Shown in pieces: positions 8,499 through 30,498 of a DNA stretch of 64,000 nucleotides (position 1 is the stretch's first letter; each line of letters begins with the position of its first letter). Source of the DNA: a virus. Lineage: Duplodnaviria; Heunggongvirae; Uroviricota; Caudoviricetes. A model generated the notes under the pieces. It did no database searches and was not told the origin of the DNA. It saw only the letters and a list, made by a program, of their open reading frames with translations. Location of the stretch: IMG/VR virus record IMGVR_UViG_3300028800_000057. One strand, written 5' to 3'. The translations under genes and the position numbers were made by a program.

Positions 8499-8834
8499 GT
8501 GGGTTCGATGGCGCTTAACGGACCCTGTCCTTACTGTGGAGTGGGGGATTATTACTACTACAGTATAATGAGCGGGATTAGTGGGTGTCACCTCTGTCAA
8601 AGAAGTGGTTCCCACGAGCACGCTGGGGTTCTACCTCCGAAAGCGTGCGGGCCACTCATCGGCTTTTGGGTGCGGCTCATACGCTGGTGTTGGCTAAAGG
8701 ACCCGCACCTTCACAAGACCTGCTCTCGATGTCATGGAAAGTGGATCTCACCGCCGGTAGGAGTCAAGGGCGAGCCTGTACTGACCAAGCCCAAGAAGAT
8801 CAAGAATCGCTACCAACGAGATCCAGTTATATGA
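8499..8834 (+). CDS. Cys-rich (Zn-finger-like) protein with C-terminal RYQRDPVI tag; likely start ATG 8508
   Basis: Three CxxC pairs; tag at stop; GGTGTA motif 10 nt before ATG 8508. Confidence 0.7.
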   Translation: MGSMALNGPCPYCGVGDYYYYSIMSGISGCHLCQRSGSHEHAGVLPPKACGPLIGFWVRLIRWCWLKDPHLHKTCSRCHGKWISPPVGVKGEPVLTKPKKIKNRYQRDPVI

Positions 8835-9165
8835 CCGGATCCCTTTCGTAACGCGACACTCTCTTGATTGATTCAGGGATAGGCGATGAAGGACGACTCG
8901 ACTCGGATAGCGCAACCCCTTCGAAGCTAAACCAATAGACCCCTCCATTCCATTGCTCAACTTTGATAGCCCAAGAAGAGCCTTGGTAGTTATTGAACAT
9001 GTGGGCTGCCACATTCAATAGGATCTGCCTGTTTGACCCGCCTTCATTCAGCACTTCATTTAGGTCGTGTGCAAACCCATTCAGGTCATCCAGGTCATGA
9101 GTGCTTGCCACACTGAAGACCTCGAAGTCATCCTCGGACTCGCGCATCACAACATTAATAGACAT
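8827..9165 (-). CDS. Hypothetical protein with C-terminal SRYERDPVI tag
   Basis: ATG 9165 abuts the HU-like gene stop; tag at stop. Confidence 0.7.
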   Translation of the reverse strand: MSINVVMRESEDDFEVFSVASTHDLDDLNGFAHDLNEVLNEGGSNRQILLNVAAHMFNNYQGSSWAIKVEQWNGGVYWFSFEGVALSESSRPSSPIPESIKRVSRYERDPVI

Positions 9166-9166
9166 C

Positions 9167-9919
9167 TTACTTGACTTTATACCACCATCGCTTGGGGCTA
9201 GAAAAGATGTCTCTCCTACCACTCAGGGTATTCGAGACTGATGACCTGCGCTGAGGTGCCAGGTTGTTTACATCAAGTCGAGTGCAGATAGTATCGAAGT
9301 CAATTGTGTCACCCCCCATAACATAGATGATGCGTTCGACAAGAGTCTGTGGCTCAGAGTTAGGTGTCCTTGGTCGTGGAGTAAACCTACCAGCCCTAGG
9401 TGGAGTTGCTTGCGGCGGCGGTGGTGGCGGGTCCAAGACAACTACAGCCTGCTCGCGTTTTTTCTTTGGTAGCTTACTTGCTAGCTCCTCCAAGCCCAAT
9501 GCCTCAAGCTCTTCAACACTTAGTTTGGATAATGCCCGCTCCTGAGCCGCCTTTTTAGCCTTTAGCGGCTCCTTCGCCTTGCGTCTCTCCAACGACTTCA
9601 GGTCTGAAATAGACCCCACTACACCCACATCAAGCTTGAACCCAACTAAGAAAGAAGCCCTAAGCTTCTTCGAGGCGGGTCGAGGAGATATAACCATCAC
9701 CTCTCCGTTCACAGGGTTCCTACCGAGCCTCTCCTCTCTTGGTGGGGTATCTACAAGACGAATCCTTAGTACATTCGGGATGTTAACCACCCCATCTCTC
9801 TTCAAGGACCGTTCAAGTACTGTCTGCTGGGCCACCAAAAACGCCCTCACCGCGGTCTTTGTTACCTGGAACTCCCCAAGTTCAGCCTTAATCTCAGTGA
9901 TGAAGTCGGCATTAATCAT
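9167..9919 (-). CDS. HU/IHF-like DNA-binding protein fused to Pro-rich linker and C-terminal winged-helix-like domain
   Basis: R.GRNP.NGE.M.I arm motif (REERLGRNPVNGEVMVISPRPASKKLRASF). Confidence 0.8.
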   Translation of the reverse strand: MINADFITEIKAELGEFQVTKTAVRAFLVAQQTVLERSLKRDGVVNIPNVLRIRLVDTPPREERLGRNPVNGEVMVISPRPASKKLRASFLVGFKLDVGVVGSISDLKSLERRKAKEPLKAKKAAQERALSKLSVEELEALGLEELASKLPKKKREQAVVVLDPPPPPPQATPPRAGRFTPRPRTPNSEPQTLVERIIYVMGGDTIDFDTICTRLDVNNLAPQRRSSVSNTLSGRRDIFSSPKRWWYKVK

Positions 9920-9925
9920 AGGTGC

Positions 9926-9962
9926 ACTTGAAAAGTATCAGAGTAGTTGATACTTTTCAAGT
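9926..9962. promoter_or_regulatory. 15-bp inverted repeat forming a symmetric TTGAAA-N17-TACTTT promoter/operator
   Basis: ACTTGAAAAGTATCA-gagtagt-TGATACTTTTCAAGT directly upstream of the HU-like gene. Confidence 0.6.
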
Positions 9963-10585
9963 ATAATTAGGAATATTCTAGTTTAGCTCCACCATCAAGT
10001 AGTAGCTTGCTTTCGCTAAGTCGAGCTTCAGCTCCTTGAAGAAGTCGATTAGAGCACCAAGGTCCATCAGGGTGAATGCTCCACACGTGTTAGTTCCGCC
10101 CTCAGCTATCAAGCCTCCGAAGAGCCAACTCTGGTCCTTATCCCTGTCATTGTACTTGAGAGGGGCCTTGTGCTCATACCTGGATAATACAGCATAGGCC
10201 TCCACCAACGGGATACTGTGCTTGGAGGCATTACTCCCTGAGTACCTCTGAGTAGTCCAGTTTTGGGACTACTCTTATGTGCGACCCGCAAGAAGGACAG
10301 TAATCCTTCCCACTGACCACCCCATGGAGAGAGTTCGAACAGCACTCGAATATTGTCCCATTAGCTGTCTTCGACACTAAGTGGTTCAACAGGTACCCGT
10401 AAAATACCCTACTGTAAGCTATGGAACTCATACGTCTTTCTCCAATACAGTGTGCTTACGCTCATCAATCTCACGAAGTACCCTGCCAGAACGCCTAAGT
10501 GACCTTGTTGATATGAGGATAGCCACCAAAGATAGAGCTATCGACAGGATATTGAGCCCAGAGATTATGAGTTGGCCTCGGTCTG

Positions 10586-10939
10586 TCATTGCAAGAACCC
10601 ACGAGTCCTCATCATCGGAACCTTGCACCCATCGTTGTTGTACGACCAACGAGCCGCACACTCGATAGGAGTCACCGTCTGGTTGCCGTTCTTGTCCTTC
10701 GTGGATAGGCTGCAGGAGACATACCCGTCACCGTCGGTGTCCCGATTCATGCACTCGACCCCAAAGATCTCGATACTCATCGACCTGGCATAGGCTCTCG
10801 CCTCCTCTTCAGCGGTACTGCGCGAGGGTGAACAGCCGTGGAACACGAAGCCAATTGCTATGGCCGCCAAGATCCCGATGATTGACACTACTATGATCAG
10901 CTCAATAAGGGTGAATCCACGATGTAACTTGGTTCTCAT
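10586..10939 (-). CDS. Type IV pilin-like protein
   Basis: Class III signal RG-FTLIELIIVVSIIGILAAIAIG; Cys pairs in the C-terminal head. Confidence 0.85.
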   Translation of the reverse strand: MRTKLHRGFTLIELIIVVSIIGILAAIAIGFVFHGCSPSRSTAEEEARAYARSMSIEIFGVECMNRDTDGDGYVSCSLSTKDKNGNQTVTPIECAARWSYNNDGCKVPMMRTRGFLQ

Positions 10940-11026
10940 ACTCGATTCCTTCGACGGGATACGCTACTTGAACCAAAAACTCTAGTCAAGCAACCATTAC
11001 CCCGGTGTAAGTACTACACCAGACCA

Positions 11027-11275
11027 ATGGGTGATCACAGAAGTGCATACATATTTGGGGACTTATTCCGGGAGTTTGCCCGGGATGACATCAGTAAGAA
11101 CGACTTCGCTCTAACGATGTGGAAGTGCATGGAAGAACTGGACTTTCACTGGAGCGAGATGCGGGCCAATGAGGCACTCGAGAAGTTCGGCCTGGCTAGG
11201 AAACGCGTTGATCCAGACTACCCTGAGGAGGGTGAGGTTTGGTTCTACGGACCCGAGGGGAATGACAGGACGTAA
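11027..11275 (+). CDS. Hypothetical protein
   Basis: 82-aa ORF. Confidence 0.6.
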   Translation: MGDHRSAYIFGDLFREFARDDISKNDFALTMWKCMEELDFHWSEMRANEALEKFGLARKRVDPDYPEEGEVWFYGPEGNDRT

Positions 11276-11316
11276 TCAACCTACCGCCCAAACTGAGCTC
11301 TGATTCGCATCTAGTA

Positions 11317-11510
11317 TTGACTTTTTAGCTGTATTGGTATAAACAGCTCGTCCAGGGTTGGCCAACCCAAAACGAGGGGACGGGCCTGGATAGGGGCACT
11401 GACGGTCTTTGGACCCTCCGTGTTAGCGCTGCTGCACTCCGCCTATTCAGGTCTGTCTACCTCACCAACTTGTGGCATTTTGCGAATCAAGTGGCAAAAT
11501 GATACACCAA
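11317..11510 (+). ncRNA. Candidate structured small RNA behind a TTGACT...TGgTATAAA promoter
   Basis: ORF-free 350-bp gap; stems TCCAGG/CCTGGA, GTTGG/CCAAC, CATTTTGC/GCAAAATG. Confidence 0.35.
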
Positions 11511-11629
11511 TATGACACCAAGTTCAAGAAGCAACTTGGAAACTATTAAGAAAAGTAGGCGCACCACCGCCTTGGTTACACCCTCATTGAATGTATAGCT
11601 GATCTGGCCTATATGGCGCAGCCCCGGAT

Positions 11630-12016
11630 CTAGATCTTGAACAGGTCTATTACGTTCGGAATGAACCCAGACTGTAGCTCGTCTGCCTCATCCGCGTAAG
11701 CACTGGACACATACACATAACCCACCGGGATGTTAGAGTTTAATCTGTACTCACAGCCCGACTCTAGTGCGATTACCCCTCGCTTTGGTGAAGGCAGTAG
11801 CTTCACGTTACCCTCACCAAACATGATGGCAAAAGTGAGTATCTTGTCTGTATCCGCAGGGTTGACCCAAACACGGAAGATTGGATCAACCCGAGGCAGC
11901 AAGACCGCATACCGGGGCTTTGGCTTAGCCTTGCCAACCACTCGTAGCGAGGGCCGTACAGCTGGTTCTTCAGTGGGGTCCTGGTACTCTACTTGTATCT
12001 TTGCTGGCATGGACAT
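11630..12016 (-). CDS. Hypothetical protein
   Basis: 128-aa ORF. Confidence 0.65.
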   Translation of the reverse strand: MSMPAKIQVEYQDPTEEPAVRPSLRVVGKAKPKPRYAVLLPRVDPIFRVWVNPADTDKILTFAIMFGEGNVKLLPSPKRGVIALESGCEYRLNSNIPVGYVYVSSAYADEADELQSGFIPNVIDLFKI

Positions 12017-12030
12017 AATGTCAGCAATTA

Positions 12031-12068
12031 GTGAGCCAATGTGGGAGTTCTAACTAATATTGGCTCAC
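12031..12068. promoter_or_regulatory. 10-bp inverted repeat between divergent genes
   Basis: GTGAGCCAAT-N18-ATTGGCTCAC. Confidence 0.45.
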
Positions 12069-12117
12069 AGTACTGATATCATGGGCTGTAGCACCCACAA
12101 ATGGTGTATTTGAGGGC

Positions 12118-12558
12118 ATGGCTACAAGACACAAGGATAGCGCTCCGCGAGAAGAGATTGACTGCCTGAAGGACAAGTTGGGTCAGGACATCAGGGTTGG
12201 CTCGTACATCGCCTATGGGCACGCCCTTGGTCGTTGTGCAGCCATCAAGATAGGACGCGTCCTGAAACTAACCTCGAAGCCCCTGGACCCTCTTACCTAC
12301 TCATCCTCGCCCCACCGCTTGACTGTTGTAGGAGTCGATGACGACCTTGTCTGGGCTGATCGCGAAGCCGAGATAGCTAAGTACCCACCAAAGCTCAGTA
12401 AACTTGGTACCCTTCTATACCCTGATCGTACTGTAGTTCTCAAAGATACAGTTATCCCCGCAGCTTACAAGGTGCTCCTGGACTCCTTCGAGTGGCCAGA
12501 GAAGTCCAAGAGAACCCGAACTAGATCACCCAAGGTCGCTCGTACCGTGACAACCTAG
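12118..12558 (+). CDS. Hypothetical protein (SH3-like DK.G..I.VG..IAY start)
   Basis: 146-aa ORF; GGTGTA 9 nt upstream. Confidence 0.7.
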   Translation: MATRHKDSAPREEIDCLKDKLGQDIRVGSYIAYGHALGRCAAIKIGRVLKLTSKPLDPLTYSSSPHRLTVVGVDDDLVWADREAEIAKYPPKLSKLGTLLYPDRTVVLKDTVIPAAYKVLLDSFEWPEKSKRTRTRSPKVARTVTT

Positions 12559-13150
12559 GGGGTTCAAGAGCCATCAGCACCTCCAAGCTCTTTGGTAGTT
12601 TCAGCTCAGGGATACCGAAGTACAGTGGAGTGCAAGAGAACTCAGGTTGAGGTTCGACCTCCGAGTATCCAATAATCAACTTCCAGGAGCTATTATTGGC
12701 TAGTGCCTCCCTGATCCCCGCTCGCGTCACGAAGAACAAGGTCCCGTTGGGTACAATAACTAACTTCTCATGGACGAACCGTAGAAGCTGATTCACCCGA
12801 GTGTCGATCCTGTGGGCAAGGTTGAACTCCATCCCGCGAGACTTGAACCATCTGTCCGTGAACCTCGCAACAGGTATTGAAGGTTTCGACGGGTCATTGA
12901 GCTTATTTTTAACCCTAAACTCGAAGTGAGATACAAACTTTCTATCAACCTTCTCCCATTGGATGTGCCAGGTCTCGCAATTATCCTCCCAGTCAACTAG
13001 GATGCCACCAGTCGCAGCCGAGACCACTGATTTACTAACGTCCGGCCTGGAATACCGAACGACATTTAACTCATCCAGGTTCACCGAAGTCACGTACCAC
13101 TTGATGTGAATGGGCAGGGGCATCGAGCGAGTCGTACCATGGTGCGACAA
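12521..13150 (-). CDS. Hypothetical protein with C-terminal SRYERPWVI tag
   Basis: 209-aa ORF, tag at stop. Confidence 0.7.
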   Translation of the reverse strand: MSHHGTTRSMPLPIHIKWYVTSVNLDELNVVRYSRPDVSKSVVSAATGGILVDWEDNCETWHIQWEKVDRKFVSHFEFRVKNKLNDPSKPSIPVARFTDRWFKSRGMEFNLAHRIDTRVNQLLRFVHEKLVIVPNGTLFFVTRAGIREALANNSSWKLIIGYSEVEPQPEFSCTPLYFGIPELKLPKSLEVLMALEPPRLSRYERPWVI

Positions 13151-13190
13151 TTGTTGTCAATTGTAGTGATTTGGTGTAGACTTCCTCACC

Positions 13191-13478
13191 ATGGACGACG
13201 ACAACAGCGACGAGGGCTTCTTGCTGTACGTGGATATACACTCGGAGACCGACCTAGCCTTGTTCAGTCGCGAGGATGTCATCCGTCTTCTCAAGCTCGC
13301 CTGTGTCCCTCCAGGCTCATGGTTCGTACCGAACAGGACCTTCATTAGTGTCCAGGCCGACGTAGCCCGTCCCCTCACCAAACGCGCCAGGAGGCACCTC
13401 AAGCGCTTGAAGACGCCTCAACTCGAGTTACCCTTCGACCCGAGTCGTGGTGCTGAGGACTATTTGCTCTCAGAGTAG
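13191..13478 (+). CDS. Hypothetical protein
   Basis: 95-aa ORF; GGTGTA 12 nt upstream. Confidence 0.6.
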   Translation: MDDDNSDEGFLLYVDIHSETDLALFSREDVIRLLKLACVPPGSWFVPNRTFISVQADVARPLTKRARRHLKRLKTPQLELPFDPSRGAEDYLLSE

Positions 13479-13523
13479 CAAATTCAAGTTGAGATCTGAG
13501 TATCCTCGCTCGTAATACTGGGC

Positions 13524-13856
13524 ATGACCTACAATGATGCCCAACTAACACTAGAGGAAGTTAATCAGATGCCCATGGATGCTCTGACATTCAATGACTT
13601 TGCTCAGTTGAGTGACAGATCGTTCCACTTCAGGAGTTACAGTGAGGAGCAACTCACTATAGGGGTTCCAATCTCAGAGGTCGAGCGTATTCGAGAACTA
13701 CTCTCAGACTGCAAAGATTCTCGGAAGTATTGGATGTGGGTTCGAGCTGGACTAGAACCAGACAAGGCTCTCCGAAAGGTTAGAGTGGGTCGCGCCCAAG
13801 CCAAGAAGTCTCGTCTGGCTCAAGTAGAGATCATCTATGTTCGACGAGCAGCCTAG
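13524..13856 (+). CDS. Hypothetical protein, probably leaderless mRNA
   Basis: TTGAGA-N16-CGTAAT, ATG 7 nt downstream. Confidence 0.7.
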   Translation: MTYNDAQLTLEEVNQMPMDALTFNDFAQLSDRSFHFRSYSEEQLTIGVPISEVERIRELLSDCKDSRKYWMWVRAGLEPDKALRKVRVGRAQAKKSRLAQVEIIYVRRAA

Positions 13857-14239
13857 ATCACCCATGGGCGCTCGTATCGGGACAGTAATCTCCGAGGACC
13901 TCGGGACTTCCCGAGTGTGTCCCTGAGCAGATCTATCTCGCGTTGTTGAATATCAAGATGTTCTTGATCTTTCGGCTACTCTTCTTTGACATGAGTGAGG
14001 TCCCCACAGATAGCGTCAAGGATGGACTCATCTACTGGCAACCTGAAGATCTGTCCTCTTAAAGTCCTCACGTCGATATAGGACCGAGCGGTGCCACTCA
14101 CCGGAGCAAGGTAAATAACACGATCCGACCCAGGTTCCTTCACAGAAGCAATCTCACGAGCCTCGTTGAACCCAATCACTTCGAGGGTGGCAATAACTGG
14201 AAGAACCGGCCCCGTAGAACTTGGAGTATCTTCTGGCAT
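13853..14239 (-). CDS. 87-aa gene (13976-14239) with a 40-codon in-frame extension past TAG ending in SRYERPWVI
   Basis: TAG at 13976-13978 is in frame with a stop-free stretch to TAG 13853-13855 that carries the family tag. Confidence 0.55.
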
Positions 14240-14271
14240 AGTCCACTCAGTTACACCAGCACTACCTCAGA

Positions 14272-14631
14272 TCACCATCGAACTGTGCAGGCCTTCATAA
14301 ATAGCCCGCAACAGACAACTCCGGGAACCTGCTTCATACCTACTGGATTGGTCGCCTCGAACTCCGTCGCCGACCAATCGCTCATGCATGCAAAGAAACC
14401 ATGCCCGCGGGTCTGAATATCGGTGAAACCACTGTACCTGAGTGCACGTCGGGTATCAGCCTCGTTTGTCCAGGGCATCATCCAAAGAATGAGAATGATG
14501 ATCGATATTAGGTTGAGGAGGACTTTCATGCCCATCCGGTACACCGATATTGACGAATTATATGGAAAGTAGTTGACTGGTTTTCCAGAGTATGCGAGTA
14601 TCAACGGTGTTGGAGAAGTAGTTGACACCAA
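14272..14631 (-). CDS. Small membrane-anchored protein (start probably ATG 14530)
   Basis: Hydrophobic N-terminus; G.VCCGL.KAC motif. Confidence 0.6.
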   Translation of the reverse strand: MVSTTSPTPLILAYSGKPVNYFPYNSSISVYRMGMKVLLNLISIIILILWMMPWTNEADTRRALRYSGFTDIQTRGHGFFACMSDWSATEFEATNPVGMKQVPGVVCCGLFMKACTVRW

Positions 14632-14651
14632 TCGTCCACCGATTCTAGACT
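14622..14651 (+). promoter_or_regulatory. Sigma70-type promoter for the tracr/cas12 transcript
   Basis: TTGACA (14622)-N18-TAGACT (14646), followed by ATCAGG. Confidence 0.55.
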
Positions 14652-14656
14652 TTTAT

Positions 14657-14760
14657 CAGGGGACCTTCAACCCGTCATGTACGGGGTCCACCCCTAAAGC
14701 GAGGAACAAGTTCACTCGCTAACTGCCGAATCTTCAGTGATACGGCCCCACTTACTCGGT
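14657..14760 (+). ncRNA. Candidate tracrRNA
   Basis: CCTTCAA (14664-70) complements repeat nt 30-36; CCCCACTTACTC (14746-57) complements repeat nt 17-28 (one G:U); several stem-loops lie between them. Confidence 0.7.
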
Positions 14761-14856
14761 CAAGTCTCGATGGACGATTGGTGGCAACAACTCTACAACA
14801 TAGTGGGAATAAGCATAAAGCGAGGGTTACGACCACTCGCTGGAAAGGTAGCCTAC

Positions 14857-17540: not shown

Positions 17541-18834
17541 GTGTTGATCCGATTATGAGTAGGTGGGGTTTGAAGGACTGTCGACGCAGAGAAGCGTGCT
17601 CAACGCATTCGTAGGTGTTGATCCGATTATGAGTAGGTGGGGTTTGAAGGGAGTTGCTCGTCAGTCCCTTCTGGGAGGGCTAGGCGGGGTGTTGATCCGA
17701 TTATGAGTAGGTGGGGTTTGAAGGTGACTCGCTGCTATTCCCGGTCGTCTCGGCACTTGGCGGTGTTGATCCGATTATGAGTAGGTGGGGTTTGAAGGGG
17801 CGAGGACGACAACGACGTTATGTCGTTGATCTCGAGTGTTGATCCGATTATGAGTAGGTGGGGTTTGAAGGTCTGAACTCGGTTGGGACTCGGTCAGGTA
17901 CTTGGTCAGTGTTGATCCGATTATGAGTAGGTGGGGTTTGAAGGCAGGTCATCAGAGTCCAGGTGTTGATCCGATTATGAGTAGGTGGGGTTTGAAGGAA
18001 TCCGACAAGCGGCCTCGCCGTAGACCTCACTTACGGTGTTGATCCGATTATGAGTAGGTGGGGTTTGAAGGTTCGATTTTGAGGCCGTCAATCTTGGCTA
18101 GCGCGTTGTGTTGATCCGATTATGAGTAGGTGGTTCTTGAAGGGATCAAGCCCGATGAAGGTGTTACGCCGGGCATGAACGTGTTGATCCGATTCTGAGT
18201 AGGTGGTGCTTGAAGGGCCGTTAGCTAGCCCCATCGCATAGTGACTAGGGTTGTGTTGATCCGATTATGAGTAGGTGGGGTTTGAAGGGTTATGTCAGCC
18301 ACACGCCAACGTGGCCCGTTCTCGCGTGTTGATCCGATTATGAGTAGGTGGGGTTTGAAGGATTCGGCAAAGGGAGGAAAAGGGGGCCGGATTTCGCGTG
18401 TTGATCCGATTATGAGTAGGTGGGGTTTGAAGGGGCTCACGAGCATTAGGATGTCGGCGCGGGTGGGATTGTGTTGATCCGATTCTGAGTAGGTGGTTCT
18501 TGAAGGTCGCCTCGCTTGGCATAGTCAATTTTCGCCAATAGGTGTTGATTCGATTCTGAGTAGGTGGGGTTTGAAGGCAATCTATCGATTGGAACCATTG
18601 CTAGTCGACTTCTTGTGTTGATCCGATTATGAGTAGGTGGTTCTTGAAGGTTCGTCGGAGAGTTCGAGCACAACGGCCCAAATGCGTGGTTGATCCTATT
18701 CTGAGTAGGTGGTGCTTGAAGGATGCATTGACTACGACCAGCAACCCGCAATAGCCAAGTTCTGACCCCATTATCAGTAGGTGGGGTTTGAAGGGCCAGG
18801 TGTTGATCTGATTCTGAGTAGGTGGTATTGAAGG
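17541..18834 (+). CRISPR. CRISPR array, 19 repeats / 18 spacers; repeat GTGTTGATCCGATTATGAGTAGGTGGGGTTTGAAGG (36 nt)
   Basis: Repeats 1-8 identical; degeneration from 18108 onward places the leader on the cas12 side; spacers 35-38 nt except one of 18 nt and one of 5 nt. Confidence 0.98.
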
Positions 18835-19262
18835 GGGCCCCACATCACCTCGTAGAGCTCGTCAAAGCCTTCCGCCAGGGTTGGGTCCACGAACCTTTGA
18901 GCCGTGATGAGGATGCCCACGCGCGGGACGAATGCCTTCCCTGTCCGTTGAGCATTCCTCTCCATAGACTGCTGAACATTGGATCTGAAATGGTATACGA
19001 TGACCCGTGCGGAGTAGTAACGCGCCAGAGCTACCAACTCAGCCCGTTCTTCAACACTCGGGTTCGTGTTGTCCACTACTAGGGACTTCCCTGCCTCGAG
19101 AGCCTCCCGAATGAGCAGAGTCTGTCTCACAGACTTTGGAGTCCGATTCTTGCGACTACGAGTCATCAAGTCCTTGCTCACAAGGACATAGTCGGGAAAG
19201 AGCACCTTTTGAAAGGTGCTCTTTCCCGATGCCTGCAGGCCAACAAGAATGATGAGATCCAT
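18774..19262 (-). CDS. AAA_33 / polynucleotide-kinase-like P-loop protein
   Basis: LIILVGLQASGKST Walker A; VVDNTN; 3' end overlaps terminal CRISPR repeats. Confidence 0.85.
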   Translation of the reverse strand: MDLIILVGLQASGKSTFQKVLFPDYVLVSKDLMTRSRKNRTPKSVRQTLLIREALEAGKSLVVDNTNPSVEERAELVALARYYSARVIVYHFRSNVQQSMERNAQRTGKAFVPRVGILITAQRFVDPTLAEGFDELYEVMWGPLQYHLLRIRSTPGPSNPTY

Positions 19263-19266
19263 CGAA

Positions 19267-20019
19267 CTACTTGAGATTCTGCAGTATTTGAGTCACAAGA
19301 TCAACATATTCGTCCCCATAGGGTAGATTCCGGTCGATGTAGATCTTCCGTCTTTGAGCAATACTGGATGTCTTGGTCTTGGGGTTGAATCCAGTTTTCT
19401 CGAAACCATGCCAATAGAGCCCGGTCCCACGCTTCTGCCATAGAGGAACGTTGTTGAAGTTGATCCCGTTCTTGTGCAGTATTTCGTTCTTGGTAGAGAA
19501 GGTGGCCCCTTCGAGCCCCTCCGTCGCCTGCTTGGCGGTATGCCCGGATCTCCTCATTGTCCAGTAGCACCAGGAGTTGATACAGCACCGGGAAGCGTCC
19601 AGCTGCCTCCAACGGAAGTAGTCCAGCACATTGGATGTCAACGGCCCAACCCATAACCGACTGTCGAAGTGAGCCGCCTGACCTAGTTGAATCGAGAAGG
19701 TCGAGGAAGCTATCCCTGCAGAGACCGACACCAGCTTCTCCACCTCGCGGCCAAATAGATCCGTATCGCGAGGCAATAGAACAGAAATCTCGTCACTCTC
19801 CGTGAACGCATACAACCCTCCAAGCTCGACCAAGAGAATCGCCGCTGTCTCGACCATAGACTCGTGAAACTTCACGTCAAATGGGTGATCCATCCCACGA
19901 GTCAGCTTCGTAAAGCTCCGCCCATCAACGCGGATGATCGTGTAAGTATCGGGGAGAACCTCCAATGAGTGGTAGTACTCAAGCCGGCGCATCCTCGCTT
20001 CTAGGGTGTCGCTTTTCAT
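19267..20019 (-). CDS. thg1: tRNA(His) guanylyltransferase Thg1-like protein
   Basis: RVDGRSFTKLT, ESDEISVL, FDSR, YF.WRQ.DA.R..IN, FN.VP.WQKRG motifs. Confidence 0.92.
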   Translation of the reverse strand: MKSDTLEARMRRLEYYHSLEVLPDTYTIIRVDGRSFTKLTRGMDHPFDVKFHESMVETAAILLVELGGLYAFTESDEISVLLPRDTDLFGREVEKLVSVSAGIASSTFSIQLGQAAHFDSRLWVGPLTSNVLDYFRWRQLDASRCCINSWCYWTMRRSGHTAKQATEGLEGATFSTKNEILHKNGINFNNVPLWQKRGTGLYWHGFEKTGFNPKTKTSSIAQRRKIYIDRNLPYGDEYVDLVTQILQNLK

Positions 20020-22506: not shown

Positions 22507-22518
22507 CCTCGGGTCACT

Positions 22519-22776: not shown

Positions 22777-22779
22777 ACA

Positions 22780-23580
22780 TCACGGCAATGGTATCCACGA
22801 GGCGACTAGTAATTTCTCAATGCGAGGCCCTGACCCACAGTAAAGTTCAGGGGTGCCTTCCTTCAGATAGAAGCGAGACCCCCCATCCATTACTAAAGTA
22901 GGTGAGGTCAGTCTACCAGATGAGATCAGTTCACATTGAAATCCATCAGCTCTTATCGAGCTGATCAGTTCTCCCAGGCTTGGCAAAAAGAAGTCCTCTG
23001 GTATCTTGACCTTAGCTAGTACAACCCCACGATAGGACGATAACTGATCGGATGCAGCTTCTTGAACTAAGCCATTCCAGGTTTGCTTCAACTCAACCAA
23101 CACATGGCTTGTATTCTCAAGATCACGGATCTGAGACTCCTTGTGTTGATTGATTAGCATCTCCTCATGAGCCTTCTCAATCTTTGTTTGGAGCTCTCGT
23201 ATTTGGTTTGCATCCAGATGTTCAATCATGGGGTACACTACACCTTCACTGAGCACGGTCTCGATGTCCTTGAGAAGCTCCTCACCCTTGGAGGTAATCC
23301 AGGAGCAACGAATTGTCGCCCCATGCTCGATGTAGTCCTGGTTGCTGGCCCATGAGAGGAAGAACATCGTGGGCATGTCCTCGTACCTGTTGGTATCCCA
23401 TGTCGACTGCCCAACATGGAGTCTAAACATCTCGACGATGTACCGGAGGATCGCATCCGAGTCCCCGCAGTCACAGAGGGGTAGAACACCTTGCTTGAGG
23501 TAAGCCGCCCGAGTAGCCCAGACGACCCCATTCTCATCGTAGTACCCATCCTCTGGGTCATAGACCAGCTTATCAAGCAT
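22780..23580 (-). CDS. Hypothetical protein
   Basis: 266-aa ORF. Confidence 0.7.
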   Translation of the reverse strand: MLDKLVYDPEDGYYDENGVVWATRAAYLKQGVLPLCDCGDSDAILRYIVEMFRLHVGQSTWDTNRYEDMPTMFFLSWASNQDYIEHGATIRCSWITSKGEELLKDIETVLSEGVVYPMIEHLDANQIRELQTKIEKAHEEMLINQHKESQIRDLENTSHVLVELKQTWNGLVQEAASDQLSSYRGVVLAKVKIPEDFFLPSLGELISSIRADGFQCELISSGRLTSPTLVMDGGSRFYLKEGTPELYCGSGPRIEKLLVASWIPLP

Positions 23581-23757
23581 TGCTACTTTCGCTTCCCTTT
23601 GAGCTCCACCCCAAATAGTTTTTGAATTGCTATCAGATCTGCAGGGTCAGGCTTCAAACAGCGCCTCTTAGACTGATTGTCAACGGTATCCAGGAGTAAT
23701 TGAGCAAACTTCTGGTCAGTCTCGGTAGATGCTTTACTTCTCATGGTGGTTACCCAT

Positions 23758-24180
23758 CTAGTTCCACGGTGAATAGTCAGGCATGAGCACTGTCACCCCA
23801 GTGCCTCGCCCTACGGATACGCTCCAAGACCCAGCCGAGTCCTCAAGTAAGATCTCAGTAGGGACAGGGTAAGCTATATAAACCCCACCATGCCAGCCAA
23901 TAGCCACATAGTGGTACCTACTGCATCGACTCGGTTGAGAGCGATTAGGAGCACAGAGTTCGAACCGTTGGATCCAAGGAGTATCCTCATGAACAGATAG
24001 AACAGCAACCCGCTGATTCATCTCTTTAGTCTCTTCAAATCCATCATATTGACCAGAGAACACTCCACACTCAGGATGGTTATCCCTAGTGGAACCGTCC
24101 CTGGTCTCCAGCTCTACTACAACTCGATGAGAGTACTGACCAGGATCAATGATAAACTTGCCTGAAAGTTGAATCAACAT
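23758..24180 (-). CDS. Hypothetical protein
   Basis: 140-aa ORF. Confidence 0.6.
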   Translation of the reverse strand: MLIQLSGKFIIDPGQYSHRVVVELETRDGSTRDNHPECGVFSGQYDGFEETKEMNQRVAVLSVHEDTPWIQRFELCAPNRSQPSRCSRYHYVAIGWHGGVYIAYPVPTEILLEDSAGSWSVSVGRGTGVTVLMPDYSPWN

Positions 24181-24464
24181 GACTTACTTAATCCTACCCA
24201 CCACGCCACGACCACCAACCGTTTTATGCATCACCGTGACGTCCCGAGCGATCTCAGGAGGCCGAGGCTCATCACAGAAGGGTGAAGTAGCAAACGGGTA
24301 CTCATGAACAACCTCAACAGGTTCGCAGGTCATAGCAACATTTCCATCTTCGCCCACGAACTCGGAGGGGTACTGAACTGAAGTCAGTGTGACCTGACCA
24401 TCAACCACTTCCCCCTTGTAGGTGGCCCTGTTTGGGTTCTCTTTATCGTCAGCCATGCCAATAC

Positions 24465-24959
24465 CTACACCGTCAAGCGCTTGGCCAGGTCCTTTGCATA
24501 GTTGGCTAGCCACCCGTTCGAGTATTCCACTTCTTTCCCAGCACACTTCTCTACGTCCTCTTGGAGGATGGCTTCCACCTCACCCGGGGTCATGTGGTCC
24601 CGCATCAAGGTATAGAGAAACGATACGAGCGGATCCGAACTACGGACTGATCCGCTTCGAGCCCTCAAGTCAAGCACTCGAATCGGGTTGTTCTTAAGGG
24701 CTTGAATCCGATTCCAGAGCTCCTTACGACTCTCTTGACTAGACCTATCCCGTACCATGCTCAGGGTCGATTCAAACAATCGAAGTGGTATCGACCACGT
24801 CTGACGTATCGCCCCCTCCTCAGACGCCACCCAGGTCAAGGTGGGCTCAGGAACTCGACCATCCGCGTACCCTATCGATACCTCGGGGCGCACGGATTGA
24901 TACGCGTTCAATGAAGTCAATAGGCCCTGTGCAGTATCCCAAACCGTGTCAACAGCCAT
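24465..24959 (-). CDS. Hypothetical protein
   Basis: 164-aa ORF; GGTGTA 11 nt upstream. Confidence 0.7.
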   Translation of the reverse strand: MAVDTVWDTAQGLLTSLNAYQSVRPEVSIGYADGRVPEPTLTWVASEEGAIRQTWSIPLRLFESTLSMVRDRSSQESRKELWNRIQALKNNPIRVLDLRARSGSVRSSDPLVSFLYTLMRDHMTPGEVEAILQEDVEKCAGKEVEYSNGWLANYAKDLAKRLTV

Positions 24960-25008
24960 AGGTGACTGGTTACACCGTGGAAGATGACCTGTCTAGGGGG
25001 AACCGATC

Positions 25009-25512
25009 CTATTCTGCTACAGCCGTACCAGGAATGATAGCTTCAAGGTCCATTCCAGCTGAAGCGAATAAGGCCTCCCGATGGACCCCGTATAAGAGCT
25101 CCATAATAACTCGGATACTTCCCAAAGGCTCTATGAACCGCTCCTCTTCAGGGTAGATGCTGAGGAAGTTCTCGGTATCAATGATGACTTCCCTGATGCC
25201 TTGGATGACCTCACCCCAGGTCCAGTCAATAGGCTGACTCAGATTGTCAAGTATTATTTGATACTCATGGTACCTATCGTGAGTTGGCCTAACCATCGAC
25301 TGGGCAAACTTCACGCGCCCTTCCTCATTGAACAGGTACGCTTGATAGATCTCGCGCTTCTGGCTCCTGGTCACGTGCGTCGGCTCAGATTGACCATCCA
25401 CCTCACGGTCAATATACAATTGAATCCGAGCCCTTATGCTCTCTTTAGTACAGCTGTCCACTAGGTTCGAGGATTCAAGCTGAGTCAGATACCACTTGAG
25501 ATCTGGGGCCAT
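25009..25512 (-). CDS. Hypothetical protein, paralog of 26839-27390 (YLF..EGR.K.AQSM..P motif)
   Basis: WYL.Q.....LVD.CT....R.RIQ.YID shared with the paralog. Confidence 0.75.
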   Translation of the reverse strand: MAPDLKWYLTQLESSNLVDSCTKESIRARIQLYIDREVDGQSEPTHVTRSQKREIYQAYLFNEEGRVKFAQSMVRPTHDRYHEYQIILDNLSQPIDWTWGEVIQGIREVIIDTENFLSIYPEEERFIEPLGSIRVIMELLYGVHREALFASAGMDLEAIIPGTAVAE

Positions 25513-25536
25513 ACTCTGCCTACACCATGGATAGTA

Positions 25537-26814
25537 CTATCGAATCCGAGCGCCACCCGCTTGGCAAACTTGGACGAATAGCTCTCGAGTGAAAGGCCCG
25601 AGAGCCCGCGGCCCCTTCGTCACCCACAGACGGAACGCCTCAGCAAAACCCTCTATTGGCTCCGTATCACCATAGTCAGAGATCTCCTCAACTTGAACTA
25701 CTTCTTTGTCCTTGAATTTGAGGCGACGTAGGTAGTCATCCGGATCAAAAGGCTCACTAGGCTTAGCACTGATAGACCTGATGTAGGTCTCAGAAAGCTC
25801 CCTGAACTTGATCTCATCAGCTCGACTCTTTGCAGCAGGTAGAGTCAAGTTCAGTATGTCCTTGGCATCCATGAAGGCCCAGTCCTTTGGAAGCTTGTCC
25901 ACAACAATGCGGTAGAAGTGCTCTATGTCCCTATCAGAGATAGTCACCCCTCGGTCACCGAGAATCTCTTCCCACTCAGTTCGAGCTTGCCCCGGAAGAC
26001 ACTTGAACCAGAACCGATGCCCGATCTCGTGAATCAAGGTATGCCCATCAGGGGCCGCTAGCATACCCAGTGGGTACAAGGTAAGTATATCTGTCGAAGG
26101 ATTGTACATCCCTGCTACATCGAACTCACGGGTATCAAACTTCAACAGGACATTCAACCCATCAAGCGCTATCGAGAATCCAGCCCTCCGAACCGTCTTC
26201 AAGTGCTTGCCCAATAGGTTCAAGATCTCAGCAGCGTAGTCGTCATCCTCCTTCCGACCAACGTTTTCAATGGTCACAGGGACGCCCGCTACCTCAAGAT
26301 GGTCCACAGCATCATAGCGAACCATCGTCCCGCCCTGAGAGGCTATGTACTCAGTCAGCTGCTTGTAAACCTTGGTGAACGCTACTTGGTACCGTTTGAT
26401 CCACCCCTCGCGCTTCTTTTTCAACTCATTTAGGTCAGGGCTGTATGTTACCGTATGGCTGTCTTTCCCATCCCATCGGGTCGGAAACAAGTCCCTAAGC
26501 ACGTGAATAAAGTTCCAAGTGCTCGTGCGAAGCTCCTTGATGAGATGGGCCTCTTCCTTGTCCATCTTGGGCAGTATGACCTTGTATACCCAAGCCTCAA
26601 ACCCGTCCCGAAAGGTGCGAAACAGCTTCTGCGCCTCATTGAAGTGCTCATACCCCTTCTCGCGCCCTGCAGTGTCATCCCACTCATAATCCAAGGGGAT
26701 GTCCCGATAGATCTTGGTCATGATCTTGAGGTCTTTTGCCCACTTATCGAGAGTCTTCTGGTCTATCACTGCCGCATAACGTCGGGCGACATTGCGAGCA
26801 ATCAGGTCGAACAT
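25537..26814 (-). CDS. Zincin-like metallopeptidase-domain protein
   Basis: VAGMYNP...LIHEIGHRFW (HExxH) and distal EGFAEAF. Confidence 0.75.
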   Translation of the reverse strand: MFDLIARNVARRYAAVIDQKTLDKWAKDLKIMTKIYRDIPLDYEWDDTAGREKGYEHFNEAQKLFRTFRDGFEAWVYKVILPKMDKEEAHLIKELRTSTWNFIHVLRDLFPTRWDGKDSHTVTYSPDLNELKKKREGWIKRYQVAFTKVYKQLTEYIASQGGTMVRYDAVDHLEVAGVPVTIENVGRKEDDDYAAEILNLLGKHLKTVRRAGFSIALDGLNVLLKFDTREFDVAGMYNPSTDILTLYPLGMLAAPDGHTLIHEIGHRFWFKCLPGQARTEWEEILGDRGVTISDRDIEHFYRIVVDKLPKDWAFMDAKDILNLTLPAAKSRADEIKFRELSETYIRSISAKPSEPFDPDDYLRRLKFKDKEVVQVEEISDYGDTEPIEGFAEAFRLWVTKGPRALGPFTRELFVQVCQAGGARIR

Positions 26815-26838
26815 ACCGTCAGGAAAGTATAAGTACTT

Positions 26839-27390
26839 TCAGTACTTGAATGGACCGTCAGGAGGAAGAATACTCAAGGGTAACTGGTCGAAAGCTGCCA
26901 CCCCAGTCCCACGAATCTGCGCATCACGGTCAAGGTTAGCACAAGCTTCAATCGCATTCTGGTAGAGAACATACTCAAGCGCCACCAACTCCCGTAGCTC
27001 GCAGACCGCAGGGGTGAACCGCTCGTCATCCGGAAGTATAGAGAAGAAGTTCTCGTGCTCGATAGTGAACCCCTCAAGGTTCTTCAAGAACTTATTCCAG
27101 GTCCAATCGAAGAACTGTGAACGTGTTTCTAGTATTTCACGATAGTGCTCGTACCTGACCCGAGCTGGCTTGGCCACCGCGATCACATACCGACCCCTAC
27201 CCTCACGACTGAACAAGTACTCGTTCAGTATGCTTCGCTTCACCTCGCGACTCGTATGCGACGGCCCCGATTGAGCCATCAGGAAGTCGATGTACCACTG
27301 GATGCGCCCCCGTAGAACAGGGTCAGTGCAATCATCGACCAGCTCCGCTTCCGAGATCTGATCCAAGTACCATTCAACGCAGGATGCCAT
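26839..27390 (-). CDS. Hypothetical protein, paralog of 25009-25512
   Basis: Shared motifs as above. Confidence 0.75.
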   Translation of the reverse strand: MASCVEWYLDQISEAELVDDCTDPVLRGRIQWYIDFLMAQSGPSHTSREVKRSILNEYLFSREGRGRYVIAVAKPARVRYEHYREILETRSQFFDWTWNKFLKNLEGFTIEHENFFSILPDDERFTPAVCELRELVALEYVLYQNAIEACANLDRDAQIRGTGVAAFDQLPLSILPPDGPFKY

Positions 27391-27397
27391 GAAGGGG

Positions 27398-27790
27398 TCA
27401 CCCTAGATTATCTAGTGGGCTCAGTAAATCCCTAAACTTCTCACGGACCGAAGACCTACGGCAGATACCAACAAGCAGGTCGACAAGGCCCTCCTTGGAG
27501 TTACGCTTCGCCTTGAAGCCCCAGCAACGTACCATTACCGGATAACCCTCGTCCGACACCTCGAACGTGAACCAAACCTCCCTCGACCTGGAGTCAAAGA
27601 CCACGAACGCCAGACCTGATTCGAGAATGCCCCCAGATTCGATCTCGAAGTGAACCCACTTGCGACTAGGATCAAGAGTGTTCAAACCCGCAACGAACTC
27701 GTGTAGTAAGGCTACTACAGCCTCGTACCCAGGGTTTTGGGTATCAATGCGGATGGCTTTGACCAAAGACTCAGCAAACGGATTTGGCAT
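27398..27790 (-). CDS. Hypothetical protein
   Basis: 130-aa ORF; GGTGTA 9 nt upstream. Confidence 0.65.
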   Translation of the reverse strand: MPNPFAESLVKAIRIDTQNPGYEAVVALLHEFVAGLNTLDPSRKWVHFEIESGGILESGLAFVVFDSRSREVWFTFEVSDEGYPVMVRCWGFKAKRNSKEGLVDLLVGICRRSSVREKFRDLLSPLDNLG

Positions 27791-28079
27791 GCTTCGTGTT
27801 ACACCGAGTGATCAGTCAATCCAGAAGTAAGTTGTCCCCACAGGGACCATAGTCTGACTGGAACTAGGACTACCCGGAGGTAACGGACCTTGAGTTATAG
27901 CCCTAATCGAGTTGATAAGTGCATGTACTTGTCCCGAGGGGATAGCCCCTCCTTGCTCTCACAAGTCGAACAGACCCCGAAGGTCTCCTTCAGATGGTTG
28001 GAACACGCGCATTGGTGAATGATATTCCTGCAATACTTGCAGATAAGCCTCCCATGCCCATTCGGTAGTTGTACGTTTT

Positions 28080-28424
28080 TCATGTAACTAAATTAGATAG
28101 GCCTAGTAACTGGACTTCCTCGGGAGTCAACTTGGAGAGTGCTCTAGTACGGATAGACTCTAGCGCAGAGTCTGCATCAGCCAGAATCACTGGCAAGTCA
28201 ACTAAGTAACCTACAACCCCGTTGGTCAAGACAAGTACCTTGCGCGTGCCCGTGTAGGAAGAATCACCCAACCCCTTCGAATAGGCCAGAGCTACCACAT
28301 CACTCGTGAAGCAACCCTCTGACTTGGTACAGCAACCGTCCTCATTGGTTCGATAAACCTCAGTCATCTGAATCACACGGAAATCAGTGAGAGGCTTTCC
28401 AATCAGGTCTGTTACATCGGACAT
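28080..28424 (-). CDS. Hypothetical protein
   Basis: 114-aa ORF; GGTGTA 9 nt upstream. Confidence 0.7.
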   Translation of the reverse strand: MSDVTDLIGKPLTDFRVIQMTEVYRTNEDGCCTKSEGCFTSDVVALAYSKGLGDSSYTGTRKVLVLTNGVVGYLVDLPVILADADSALESIRTRALSKLTPEEVQLLGLSNLVT

Positions 28425-28448
28425 GCCACCCAGTACACCGAGAGGATC

Positions 28449-28961
28449 TCAGATCACCCACGCACGATGATACCGACTCACCCGAATAGGTTCAGCCCAG
28501 TCAGGGCATGAACCAAGGGTGTTCGACCGGTAAAGTCGAATAGCCGCTATCGTTGCGCCTGTAACAATCGCCCCAGCGGCATGAGGGATAGCGATAGTAC
28601 CATCAACCCCTCGAGTTACCCTCCAAGTGTTACCCCCAACGCCAGTATCGACACTAGTAACCAGTATGATCTCTTGGTCAACCTGAACCTTAAACCTCGA
28701 TTGAGCCGGGAATCTAGTTGAGTTCGTGACGTGTAGTGTTGACTCACGCTCCCAGATGTTGAACATCAAAGAGGATTTCACCAACGAGTCCTCACTCACG
28801 AAGTTCTCAGTAACCCACTCCCATAGGATGCCGACCGGATGCCCCAGTAAGCAAGTGCCCTCCCACCCAAAGTTTGGGGACCGCCCTACCGCGTCCCCCG
28901 TAACACCCTGAGAGGGATACGTAGAGGGACAGTGCCGGCAACTGTCACAAGGGTTAGGCAT
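28449..28961 (-). CDS. Cys-rich protein with inserted tail-type beta domain and C-terminal SRYHRAWVI tag
   Basis: CxxCxxCP.TYPSQG shared with 30163-30498; insert VDQEIILVT...VTRGVDGT.A..HAAGA.V. Confidence 0.75.
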   Translation of the reverse strand: MPNPCDSCRHCPSTYPSQGVTGDAVGRSPNFGWEGTCLLGHPVGILWEWVTENFVSEDSLVKSSLMFNIWERESTLHVTNSTRFPAQSRFKVQVDQEIILVTSVDTGVGGNTWRVTRGVDGTIAIPHAAGAIVTGATIAAIRLYRSNTLGSCPDWAEPIRVSRYHRAWVI

Positions 28962-29401
28962 CAGATGACCGGATCCCGGTTGTACCTCGAGACCCTGTCA
29001 ACCGGTGTCAATGGCTCCTCAACGGGTGGTTCCGATGAGCCAGTGGGGTCACCTAGGTATCGAATCGTTGCCCATGGACCAAGACCCAGAATCCTCTCTT
29101 GTAGTACTGGAGCTTGTCCCCTCTGAAAGGTGAACTCAACATGGGTGTTCCGAGGGCCCCCCAAATTCGTGAGGGTAAACCCACCCCAGCCACCCCAGTA
29201 TGTACCACCTATCCAAACACGAGTATAAATGTCGTTCTCCGGTACTCCAGGGTCTTCAAAGCCCACCTCGTCAATAACACTACGAAGACTCTGTACCGCT
29301 ATGATAAGATCGCTCGGCCCAAACTCGTGATACCCACCACGACCCGTACGCCCCTTGACCACGAATACCTGATCGCTCTCGTCCACTTCAATCGTTGGCA
29401 T
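28961..29401 (-). CDS. Hypothetical protein with SRYNRDPVI tag (start ATG 29401)
   Basis: GGTGTA 11 nt upstream of ATG 29401; TGATG coupling to next gene. Confidence 0.7.
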   Translation of the reverse strand: MPTIEVDESDQVFVVKGRTGRGGYHEFGPSDLIIAVQSLRSVIDEVGFEDPGVPENDIYTRVWIGGTYWGGWGGFTLTNLGGPRNTHVEFTFQRGQAPVLQERILGLGPWATIRYLGDPTGSSEPPVEEPLTPVDRVSRYNRDPVI

Positions 29402-29420
29402 ATACCCGAGATTACACCAA

Positions 29421-29621
29421 ATGTGGATTGACCCAAAGAAGCAAAACCCCGCGGTCGGAGTACCCGTCAGAGCCCTCCTCCGAGGGGCTACCACTGGGAA
29501 GCTCGTCGAGTCCGTTCTTGTCCACGTCGACGAAGATGACTGCTACTGGAGAACCGCTGACGACAACTCAGAGATAGACTTCAACTGGGAGGTAATCGGA
29601 TGGCTTCCGGAAGTCAAATGA
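29421..29621 (+). CDS. Small DUF551-like protein
   Basis: MWID.....P...V....VIGWLP pattern. Confidence 0.55.
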   Translation: MWIDPKKQNPAVGVPVRALLRGATTGKLVESVLVHVDEDDCYWRTADDNSEIDFNWEVIGWLPEVK

Positions 29622-30114
29622 CCGGTTCCCGCTCGTATCTCGAGACTCGTTCAAGTAAATTGGAACTCTCTTCCGATGGCTCAGCAGGTAACGATGGATC
29701 ATCCTGAACTTCTTCCTCGACAGGATCAGCAAACGCCGTACGGTATAGGTATTGACCCGCTTGCCCAGCTAACTGTGATGTGGGATCTAACCTGACAATA
29801 AAAATGCAAGCGAGGTCATAATCGACAGTACCCTCCTCTAGATTCTGAAGCACCCACTTAGCCACATCGAGTTGGGTACTCTCAACGACGTATAGGGGAG
29901 ACCTCTCCCCTATCAAGTATTGCGCTCTCGAAAGTCGCTCGTCTTGATCCGTACTGTGTTGGAATATGAAGGCTGAGGTAGAGTAGACTAAGGAGGGTCT
30001 TCGATTGCTATCAGCCCACGCCAAAAGATACCGAGCTGCCTCCAATTGCAGTTCAACCGGTACTTCAGAACACCCCATTAGCTTTTGACTAGCAAAACTT
30101 TTTCGTACAGGCAT
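29614..30114 (-). CDS. Hypothetical protein with SRYEREPVI tag (start ATG 30114)
   Basis: GGTGTA 9 nt upstream; tag at stop. Confidence 0.7.
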   Translation of the reverse strand: MPVRKSFASQKLMGCSEVPVELQLEAARYLLAWADSNRRPSLVYSTSAFIFQHSTDQDERLSRAQYLIGERSPLYVVESTQLDVAKWVLQNLEEGTVDYDLACIFIVRLDPTSQLAGQAGQYLYRTAFADPVEEEVQDDPSLPAEPSEESSNLLERVSRYEREPVI

Positions 30115-30130
30115 ATCAAAGAGTACACCA

Positions 30131-30163
30131 TCAGATGACCGGATCCCGCTCATATCTAGGCAT
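30131..30163 (-). CDS. 10-aa micro-ORF MPRYERDPVI consisting only of the tag
   Basis: ATG overlaps TGA of the upstream gene (TGATG); ends in TGA at 30131-33. Confidence 0.5.
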   Translation of the reverse strand: MPRYERDPVI

Positions 30164-30498
30164 CAAATCACCCACTCCCGCGAGTAACGACTCCTCCGAA
30201 GCCCAGCATACTTGACGTCTCGGTCAGGACAATTCAACCAAAGAACCGAACGATACAGATGGATAGTCTTCACATCCTCCAATGGACCATCCCATACCCA
30301 ACAGACCCGTACCTCATGACCCCGAGAACAAGCCGCCCTCCAAACAAAGTCAGCAACCGGTATCCGGCCAATAGCCTCCGTGCCTACAACACCCTGAGAG
30401 GGATACGTCAAGGGACAATACCGACAACCATCACATGAAGGCGGTAAAGCCAAATCACGCCCCCCGGGTACCCAAAGACCAACGCTCATTGATCCCAT
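30163..30498 (-). CDS. Cys-rich protein with SRYSREWVI tag, paralog of 28449-28961
   Basis: CDGCRYCPLTYPSQG; tag at stop. Confidence 0.7.
   Translation of the reverse strand: MGSMSVGLWVPGGRDLALPPSCDGCRYCPLTYPSQGVVGTEAIGRIPVADFVWRAACSRGHEVRVCWVWDGPLEDVKTIHLYRSVLWLNCPDRDVKYAGLRRSRYSREWVI

Follow-up and report, generated by a model that had tools for sequence, protein, structure and literature searches.

Several described systems rely on a short peptide at one end of a protein. The cargo-loading peptides (CLPs) of encapsulins follow a Gly/Ser/Leu-rich C-terminal consensus, and ClpX recognises protein ends of the ssrA type (LAA-COOH) and of the MuA type (RRKKAI-COOH). Class II PDZ ligands, of the kind connected with tail-specific and HtrA proteases, end in hydrophobic-x-hydrophobic-COOH, and the peroxisomal targeting signal PTS1 reads -SKL-COOH. 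Among phages, T4 marks its proteins IPI-III and Alt with a capsid targeting sequence (CTS), by which varied proteins enter the head for co-injection (PMC3012670), and many ejection proteins are packaged by giant phages, SPN3US among them (PMC7411985). Here we describe a C-terminal peptide tag that is shared by otherwise unrelated small proteins of an uncultured phage of ~440 kb, a stretch of which (64,000 nucleotides (nt) of the IMG/VR record IMGVR_UViG_3300028800_000057, hereafter the window; positions are numbered from its start) was analysed together with its relatives. The tag looks like an address or docking label without an earlier description in the searchable literature, where searches for the motif itself and for C-terminal targeting peptides in phages gave nothing relevant.

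The six-frame translation of the window was scanned with the strict pattern RY.R..VI, and 60 shuffles of the window served as the null. We found ten copies where 0.03 were expected, and a terminal copy was never seen in the shuffled windows. This comparison had been named as a refuting test in a preliminary description of the window, which had listed nine copies; all nine are present where it had placed them, and a tenth, absent from its list, lies at 60028-60051 on the minus strand with its stop codon at 60025-60027. One copy (8499-8834) is on the plus strand and all others are on the minus strand. A stop codon directly follows the tag in all ten cases (TGA seven times, TAG twice and TAA once), which bears out the earlier remark that the tag always ends at the stop. 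Two syntenic relatives, G001 (66,974 bp, 13% complete) and G002 (98,513 bp, 19% complete; both CheckV estimates), add 19 and 20 copies, every one of them terminal. Indeed, RY.R.[PW]VI occurs 49 times in the three sequences, always before a stop codon and never internally. Seven of the nine reading frames first listed are stand-alone genes, whereas the frame at 13853-13975 and the micro-ORF (open reading frame) at 30131-30163 are not, and the inventory of the window thus consists of seven intact tagged genes and three orphan tags (Table 1). Over the three sequences, 43 of the 462 ORFs of at least 60 aa are tagged (7 of 126 in the window, 18 of 133 in G001 and 18 of 203 in G002). The tagged proteins measure 75-224 aa, while untagged ORFs reach 664 aa.

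The 43 tagged proteins define the consensus P-x-x-R-[VLI]-[ST]-R-Y-[E/N/D/S]-R-x-[P/W]-V-I-COOH, in which eleven positions are conserved and seven of these are nearly invariant; counted back from the last residue (position 0), R-7, Y-6, R-4, V-1 and I0 are the same in all 43. Position -2 is Pro in 23 proteins and Trp in 19. The conserved positions alternate (Y-6, R-4, P/W-2 and I0, plus R-7 and V-1), a pattern that would fit binding as an extended strand within a groove. The tag follows a Pro/Glu-rich linker, with Pro making up 19-33% of the residues at about -12 to -19 against a background of 6.1% (a 3-5-fold enrichment); the preliminary description had noted that a Pro-rich linker is often present. 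In an AlphaFold2 model of the 209-aa tagged protein (12521-13150; mean pLDDT 86.8), the last ~20 residues score ~60 and the body above 90. Rare residues at position -2 are Ser (TCG) in a KSVI ending (G001, 24780), Leu in a KLVI ending (L006, 3450) and the stop codon TAG in K-TAG-VI (G002, 96263). A single mutation separates Trp (TGG) from Ser TCG as well as from TAG, and likewise Pro (CCG) from Ser TCG and from Leu; by their codons, the rare residues look like intermediates of the switch between Pro and Trp that is seen within single body families.

Selection acts on the peptide. The Ser codon of the tag is TCG, TCC, TCA or AGT in the ten window copies, whose Arg codons are CGN or AGR, and over the 43 tagged genes Ser is encoded by TCN in 26 cases and by AGY in 12. 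Both invariant Arg residues use all six codons, and all codons for Tyr, Val and Ile occur. Among 327 within-genome pairs, identity in the codons of the invariant residues is 92% over positions 1 and 2 and 46% over position 3, and in the 27 nt that follow the stop codon it is 26%. The nucleotide-level conservation expected of a DNA repeat or the end of a mobile element is therefore missing: synonymous sites and flanks are essentially random, which excludes a DNA repeat and a DNA or RNA element and agrees with the earlier reading of the codon variation. A role at the level of nucleic acid or translation, as a terminator, recombination linker, stalling or termination peptide, or coupling signal, is hardly credible. 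It would account for the motif always abutting the stop codon, for the overlap of that stop with the next ATG in 7 of 43 cases, and for the modest hairpin (-14.8 kcal/mol, z -2.2; 8808-8853) that the convergent tags at this position can form. However, only 16% of the tags are coupled to a downstream start, an arrest peptide on ~10% of genes would be costly, and we know of no ribosome-arrest motif that the tag resembles. The hairpin lies in an imperfect inverted repeat (8798-8863) that exists because both strands encode the same peptide: the convergent genes 8499-8834 and 8827-9222 overlap by 8 nt at their stops (GTTATATGAC), an arrangement that is kept in G001.

The tag is portable. When the 43 tagged proteins were grouped by BLASTP after removal of the tail, their bodies fell into 25 families, which include some large paralog sets (a Cys-rich set and an 'h-x-W' set). 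The earlier observation that the bodies are unrelated save for one paralog pair holds in the window, the pair (28449-28961 and 30163-30498) being 39% identical. Between orthologs, the bodies are 37-66% identical while the last ten residues match at 8-10 of 10 positions, and untagged neighbours are mostly 70-90% identical between syntenic relatives; the tagged bodies thus evolve fast while the tail is frozen. No Pfam family was found for the tagged bodies, and Pfam and PHROGs together gave nothing for eight of nine. The phage genome collection that was searched held no relative of a tagged protein. Likewise, the fold of the 209-aa protein has no significant match in the PDB, AFDB clusters or BFVD; the best VIA-align Z is 4.1, and 11 of the 50 top rows are HK97-fold capsid or encapsulin proteins, all below the noise level of the tool.

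Only one clade of phages, with genomes of ~440-510 kb, carries the tag. The window DNA, which is almost entirely unannotatable and holds no tRNA gene, recurs identically in many independent assemblies from peat and rhizosphere, on contigs of up to 443,068 bp. Degenerate DNA patterns of the tag match only two IMG/VR contigs, G001 and G002, plus a few metagenome contigs; a looser DNA pattern gave 20 matches in G001 and 21 in G002, and its reversed control gave none. A further relative on a 464,890-bp contig is also tagged. By contrast, two other huge phages, LR745208.1 (485 kb) and FLC9 (322 kb), lack the pattern, and no tag occurs in the 21-kb neighbourhood of a homolog of the peptidase described below, on a 407-kb contig of a more distant huge phage. 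A profile of the tail found 15 proteins at E<=10 among 8000 candidates scored, all of this clade, and no match among PDB sequences. In 185,579 prokaryote species genomes, one tag variant had no match and the other (RYERPWVI) had one, in a Planctomycetia metagenome-assembled genome, where it ends an isolated 61-codon frame without the upstream consensus; by our estimate ~3 chance matches were expected.

These searches also bear on the idea of a host hub, a single conserved machine of the host (polymerase, clamp, ribosome or chaperone, for example) to which the tail would tether many different phage effectors, much as SSB tails or clamp-binding tails do. An invariant tail on fast-diverging bodies is what a slowly evolving host partner would produce, and the bodies resemble typical small phage host-takeover genes without a known family. 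The effective absence of the tag from prokaryote genomes, however, means that no host protein binds such a hub by the same tail. Moreover, nothing among PDB sequences or in the searchable literature matches, and to our knowledge the tag resembles no bacterial hub-binding motif. We regard a host hub as quite unlikely.

Five of the ~52 tags overall are cut off from their body or interrupted, four lying behind a stop codon or frame change and the fifth being interrupted by a stop. The orphan tag at 13853-13975 stands in frame directly behind the TAG (13976-13978) of an 87-aa gene (13976-14239), and its sequence is identical in six independent assemblies; the G002 ortholog of this gene region (41927-42235) encodes 102 aa without a tag. 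The tenth copy stands in frame directly behind the TAA (60121-60123) of a 199-aa ORF (60121-60720), and the TGA that closes this copy overlaps the probable start ATG of the following gene. The micro-ORF consists of nothing but the tag; it starts with an ATG that overlaps the TGA of the tagged gene upstream, from whose frame its own differs. In G002, one tag has TGA where the usual Arg precedes V-S-R-Y, and another has TAG at the W position. The use of three different stop codons argues against a single suppressor and for recurrent loss of the tag by nonsense mutation. Since the orphan tags are all still perfect, they should be either very recent or still translated by read-through.

Based on the present data, we propose that the tag acts as a C-terminal docking or address motif on unrelated small proteins, which one conserved, clade-specific receptor would read, probably for cargo loading; the case for and against this proposal appears to us evenly balanced. 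The short linear motif would be displayed on a flexible Pro/Glu-rich linker at the extreme C-terminus of small, fast-evolving proteins, and the free C-terminus would be part of what is recognised. Such a label could gather varied cargo at one place, either the virion interior for co-injection or a phage-built compartment. Cargo loading is our first choice because the cargo is varied, small and fast-evolving, because one tagged protein has virion-type domain matches, and because T4 and giant phages provide a precedent. The domain matches are a weak hint: in the protein 28449-28961, an inserted domain (residues ~72-135) is shared with tail and virion structural PHROG families (E 4e-6 to 4e-4), and the protein has weak structural look-alikes among viral proteins. 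The preliminary description had suggested a protein-sorting signal; its core, a portable C-terminal recognition peptide, stands, and the uses that it listed (loading, import, docking or degradation) are not separated by the data. Several observations weigh against our proposal. Pfam scans of the window and the tests of candidates described below did not find a receptor. The separated or interrupted tags, together with the untagged ortholog, indicate that some bodies, at least, can do without the tag. One tagged relative (P0019) is HU-like and DNA-binding, which fits several destinations equally, and an unfoldase or protease could also recognise a basic stretch with two hydrophobic residues behind it at the C-terminus.

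This last point leads to the possibility that the tag is a degron or unfoldase handle, by which an AAA+ protease or unfoldase of host or phage would degrade or remodel a class of small proteins on schedule. Like the ClpX motifs of ssrA and MuA, the tag would depend on a free C-terminus and ends in two aliphatic residues after basic ones, and the repeated removal of tags by nonsense codons from bodies that stay intact could reflect selection to stabilise particular proteins. Unlike the ClpX motifs, it is much longer and follows a Pro-rich spacer, which is unusual for degrons; with eleven conserved positions, seven of them nearly invariant, it is far more specific than known C-terminal degrons. 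The window scans also revealed no protease or unfoldase gene by Pfam. We therefore consider a degron unlikely.

Comparison with the other described systems shows how far the likeness to an address label goes. Encapsulin CLPs share with the tag a short peptide at the extreme C-terminus, a flexible linker and occurrence on unrelated cargo, and they suffice for targeting to the shell. However, the sequences are unrelated, R-[VL]-S-R-Y-E-R-x-[PW]-V-I bearing no resemblance to the CLP consensus, and encapsulins take few cargo types per shell whereas dozens of families are tagged here (~6-14% of ORFs). An encapsulin shell protein (HK97-fold, PF04454) was not found in Pfam scans of the window ORFs, which cover 64 of about 443 kb. 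The T4 CTS and the SPN3US ejection proteins are comparable as a phage-encoded loading label and as small, fast-evolving cargo. The CTS, unlike the tag, stands at the N-terminus, from which the prohead protease removes it; an N-terminal leader with an L/I-x-E prohead cleavage site is not what we see, the tag being C-terminal in 49 of 49 cases. PDZ ligands resemble the tag in their free carboxylate, their aliphatic last residue and the alternating positions of a strand-addition ligand. The invariant V-1 and I0 agree with such an end, as does Trp at -2, and Pro at that position is atypical. The conserved stretch is also longer here (9-11 residues against 4-6), and no PDZ family was among the Pfam matches of the proteins of the 64-kb window. 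Finally, PTS1 is a proteome-wide and strictly C-terminal code with one receptor, an analogy in logic only, since domain of life, motif and machinery all differ.

If a single receptor does read the tag, a peptide of 9-11 residues would mark dozens of unannotatable phage proteins as one functional class, for instance the proteins injected as an arsenal or those that fill a compartment, and would provide a handle on the dark matter of huge phages. As a proteome-wide linear sorting signal, it would also have few counterparts among prokaryotic viruses, and it might be turned into a portable tag with which foreign proteins are loaded into phage particles or shells. A short, invariant peptide that can serve as bait makes the question directly testable. 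A broader version of the proposal is a proteome-wide, sequence-defined sorting code such as eukaryotic organelles use, in which the C-terminal tag on 6-14% of the ORFs (the small ones) and a separate N-terminal helical tag on larger enzymes would both route cargo to the virion interior or to a vault- or encapsulin-like shell, with some tagging perhaps achieved by read-through of TAG, TAA or TGA. We offer this version tentatively and think it will probably prove wrong as a whole. The major vault protein family (PF01505) had no match in G001 or G002, and control genomes gave none either.

Two genes of the window were considered as readers or modifiers of the tag. Pfam scans of the window ORFs revealed one protein-modifying enzyme, an R2K.2 ATP-grasp (PF18299, E 2.5e-37) with intact catalytic residues and with counterparts in G001 (5306-6076) and G002 (75651-76066); in the protein library, 2262 representatives of the family score E<=0.001. 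R2K enzymes have been predicted to attach peptides to proteins, their targets being unknown (PMC4431377), and the binding of the R2K member Cdc123 needs the last 13 residues of eIF2-gamma (PMC8844851). A complex prediction of the enzyme with a 44-aa tail, ATP and Mg scored 0.00 and carries no weight either way. The G002 gene, however, is a pseudogene (residues 21-123 deleted, and a frameshift) in a sequence that keeps 20 tags intact, and the R2K.2 phages FLC9 and LR745208.1 are tag-less, FLC9 having no portable C-terminal tag of any kind. Tag and intact enzyme thus do not occur together consistently, and the ATP-grasp was rated low as a reader for these two reasons.

The second candidate has 425 aa and contains the motifs HEIGH and EAFAEAFRLW. 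Its model (pLDDT 84.6) matches PPEP-2/3 and the catalytic domain of lethal factor (Z 9.7-11.3; PPEP-3 and the anthrax lethal-factor domain both 11.3), by which it is a predicted M34-type zinc peptidase behind an N-terminal helical bundle. Twenty homologs lie on contigs of huge-phage size. In both the window and G001 the gene comes immediately downstream of tagged genes, and the syntenic region of G002 lacks it. The protein begins with LIARNVARRYAAV, residues that carry the other, N-terminal helical tag of this phage. A Pro-Pro cleavage site in the linker was rejected, as PP occurs in only 6 of 43 linkers. For these reasons (N-terminal tag, absence from G002, rarity of Pro-Pro), the peptidase looks more like cargo than like a processor of the tag. 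That the tag is a substrate mark, with its terminal carboxylate or linker modified or cut by one of these two enzymes, is accordingly very unlikely. The argument for it would be that R2K enzymes are predicted to act on proteins and that the ATP-grasp has kept its catalytic residues, or that a PPEP-3-like peptidase adjoins genes whose tags follow Pro-rich linkers; the pseudogene, the tag-less R2K.2 phages and the three points just named on the peptidase stand against it.

Table 1. Tagged genes, orphan tags and other features of the window. Body identity and the number of identical residues among the last ten are given in brackets after each ortholog.
Feature	Position	Strand	Length	C-terminal end and stop codon	Ortholog
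Tagged gene, four Cys pairs	8499..8834	+	108-111 aa	KNRYQRDPVI-TGA	G001 44385-44720 (66%; 10/10)
Tagged gene	8827..9222	-	112-131 aa	RVSRYERDPVI-TAA	G001 43719-44039 (42%; 9/10)
Tagged gene	12521..13150	-	200-209 aa	RLSRYERPWVI-TAG	
Orphan tag, no ATG/GTG/TTG	13853..13975	-	40 sense codons	LLSRYERPWVI-TAG	
Tagged gene, Cys-rich body	28449..28961	-	170 aa	RVSRYHRAWVI-TGA	
Tagged gene, ATG at 29401 behind GGTGTA	28961..29401	-	146 aa	RVSRYNRDPVI-TGA	G002 52159-52578 (40%; 9/10)
Tagged gene, ATG at 30114 behind GGTGTA	29614..30114	-	166 aa	RVSRYEREPVI-TGA	no relative in G001 or G002
Micro-ORF, tag alone	30131..30163	-	10 codons	M-PRYERDPVI-TGA	
Tagged gene, Cys-rich, paralog of 28449-28961	30163..30498	-	111 aa	RRSRYSREWVI-TGA	
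Tenth copy (orphan tag)	60025..60120	-	31 codons	RLSRYERTPVI-TGA	
Predicted M34-type zinc peptidase	25537..26814	-	425 aa		
R2K.2 ATP-grasp (PF18299)	49163..49900	-			
First gene of 409-aa/227-aa pair	51198..52526	+	409 aa		
Second gene of 409-aa/227-aa pair	52536..53219	+	227 aa		
Prepilin-type N-terminal methylation motif (PF07963)	10586..10939	-			
Thg1-like tRNA-His guanylyltransferase	19267..20019	-			
AAA_33 kinase	18774..19262	-			
Small ORF, acidic tail	61233..61526	+		...NPVESENPHA	
Small ORF, acidic tail	63653..63940	+		...GPVELESPSS	

Some features of individual genes complete this list. The gene at 8499-8834 probably starts at the ATG at 8508, downstream of a GGTGTA motif. The gene at 12521-13150 is a member of the larger tagged paralog family that starts with h-x-W and mostly has the W variant of the tag, and the stop codon of the gene at 28961-29401 overlaps the ATG of the next tagged gene.

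The GGTGTA motif lies 9-14 nt upstream of the ATG in ~25 genes each of the window, G001 and G002, tagged and untagged genes alike. Examples in the window are at 8484, 29420, 30133 and 14259, with ~20 more, and the motif fixes several start codons. From this placement, GGTGTA looks like a gene-start or promoter element of the phage's own. Proteins starting with Met-Pro are frequent among the tagged proteins (21 of 43, compared to 47 of 419 untagged ORFs), and part of this excess goes with the GGTGTA start class and with TGATGCC stop-start overlaps.

The pair of genes for 409 and 227 aa (51297-53219) has a second copy ~27 kb upstream of the window in some population variants (L038, 2196-4118), and several assemblies break at this upstream copy (~-27.2 kb). 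The G002 ortholog of the 409-aa gene (446 aa) starts with an N-terminal RVASRF tag, and the window copy has a stop codon 4 residues before the RVASRF motif, its first ATG being 30 codons downstream. The window Pfam matches further include a prepilin-type N-terminal methylation motif, a Thg1-like tRNA-His guanylyltransferase and an AAA_33 kinase, and two small ORFs on the plus strand have acidic tails that are similar to each other (Table 1).

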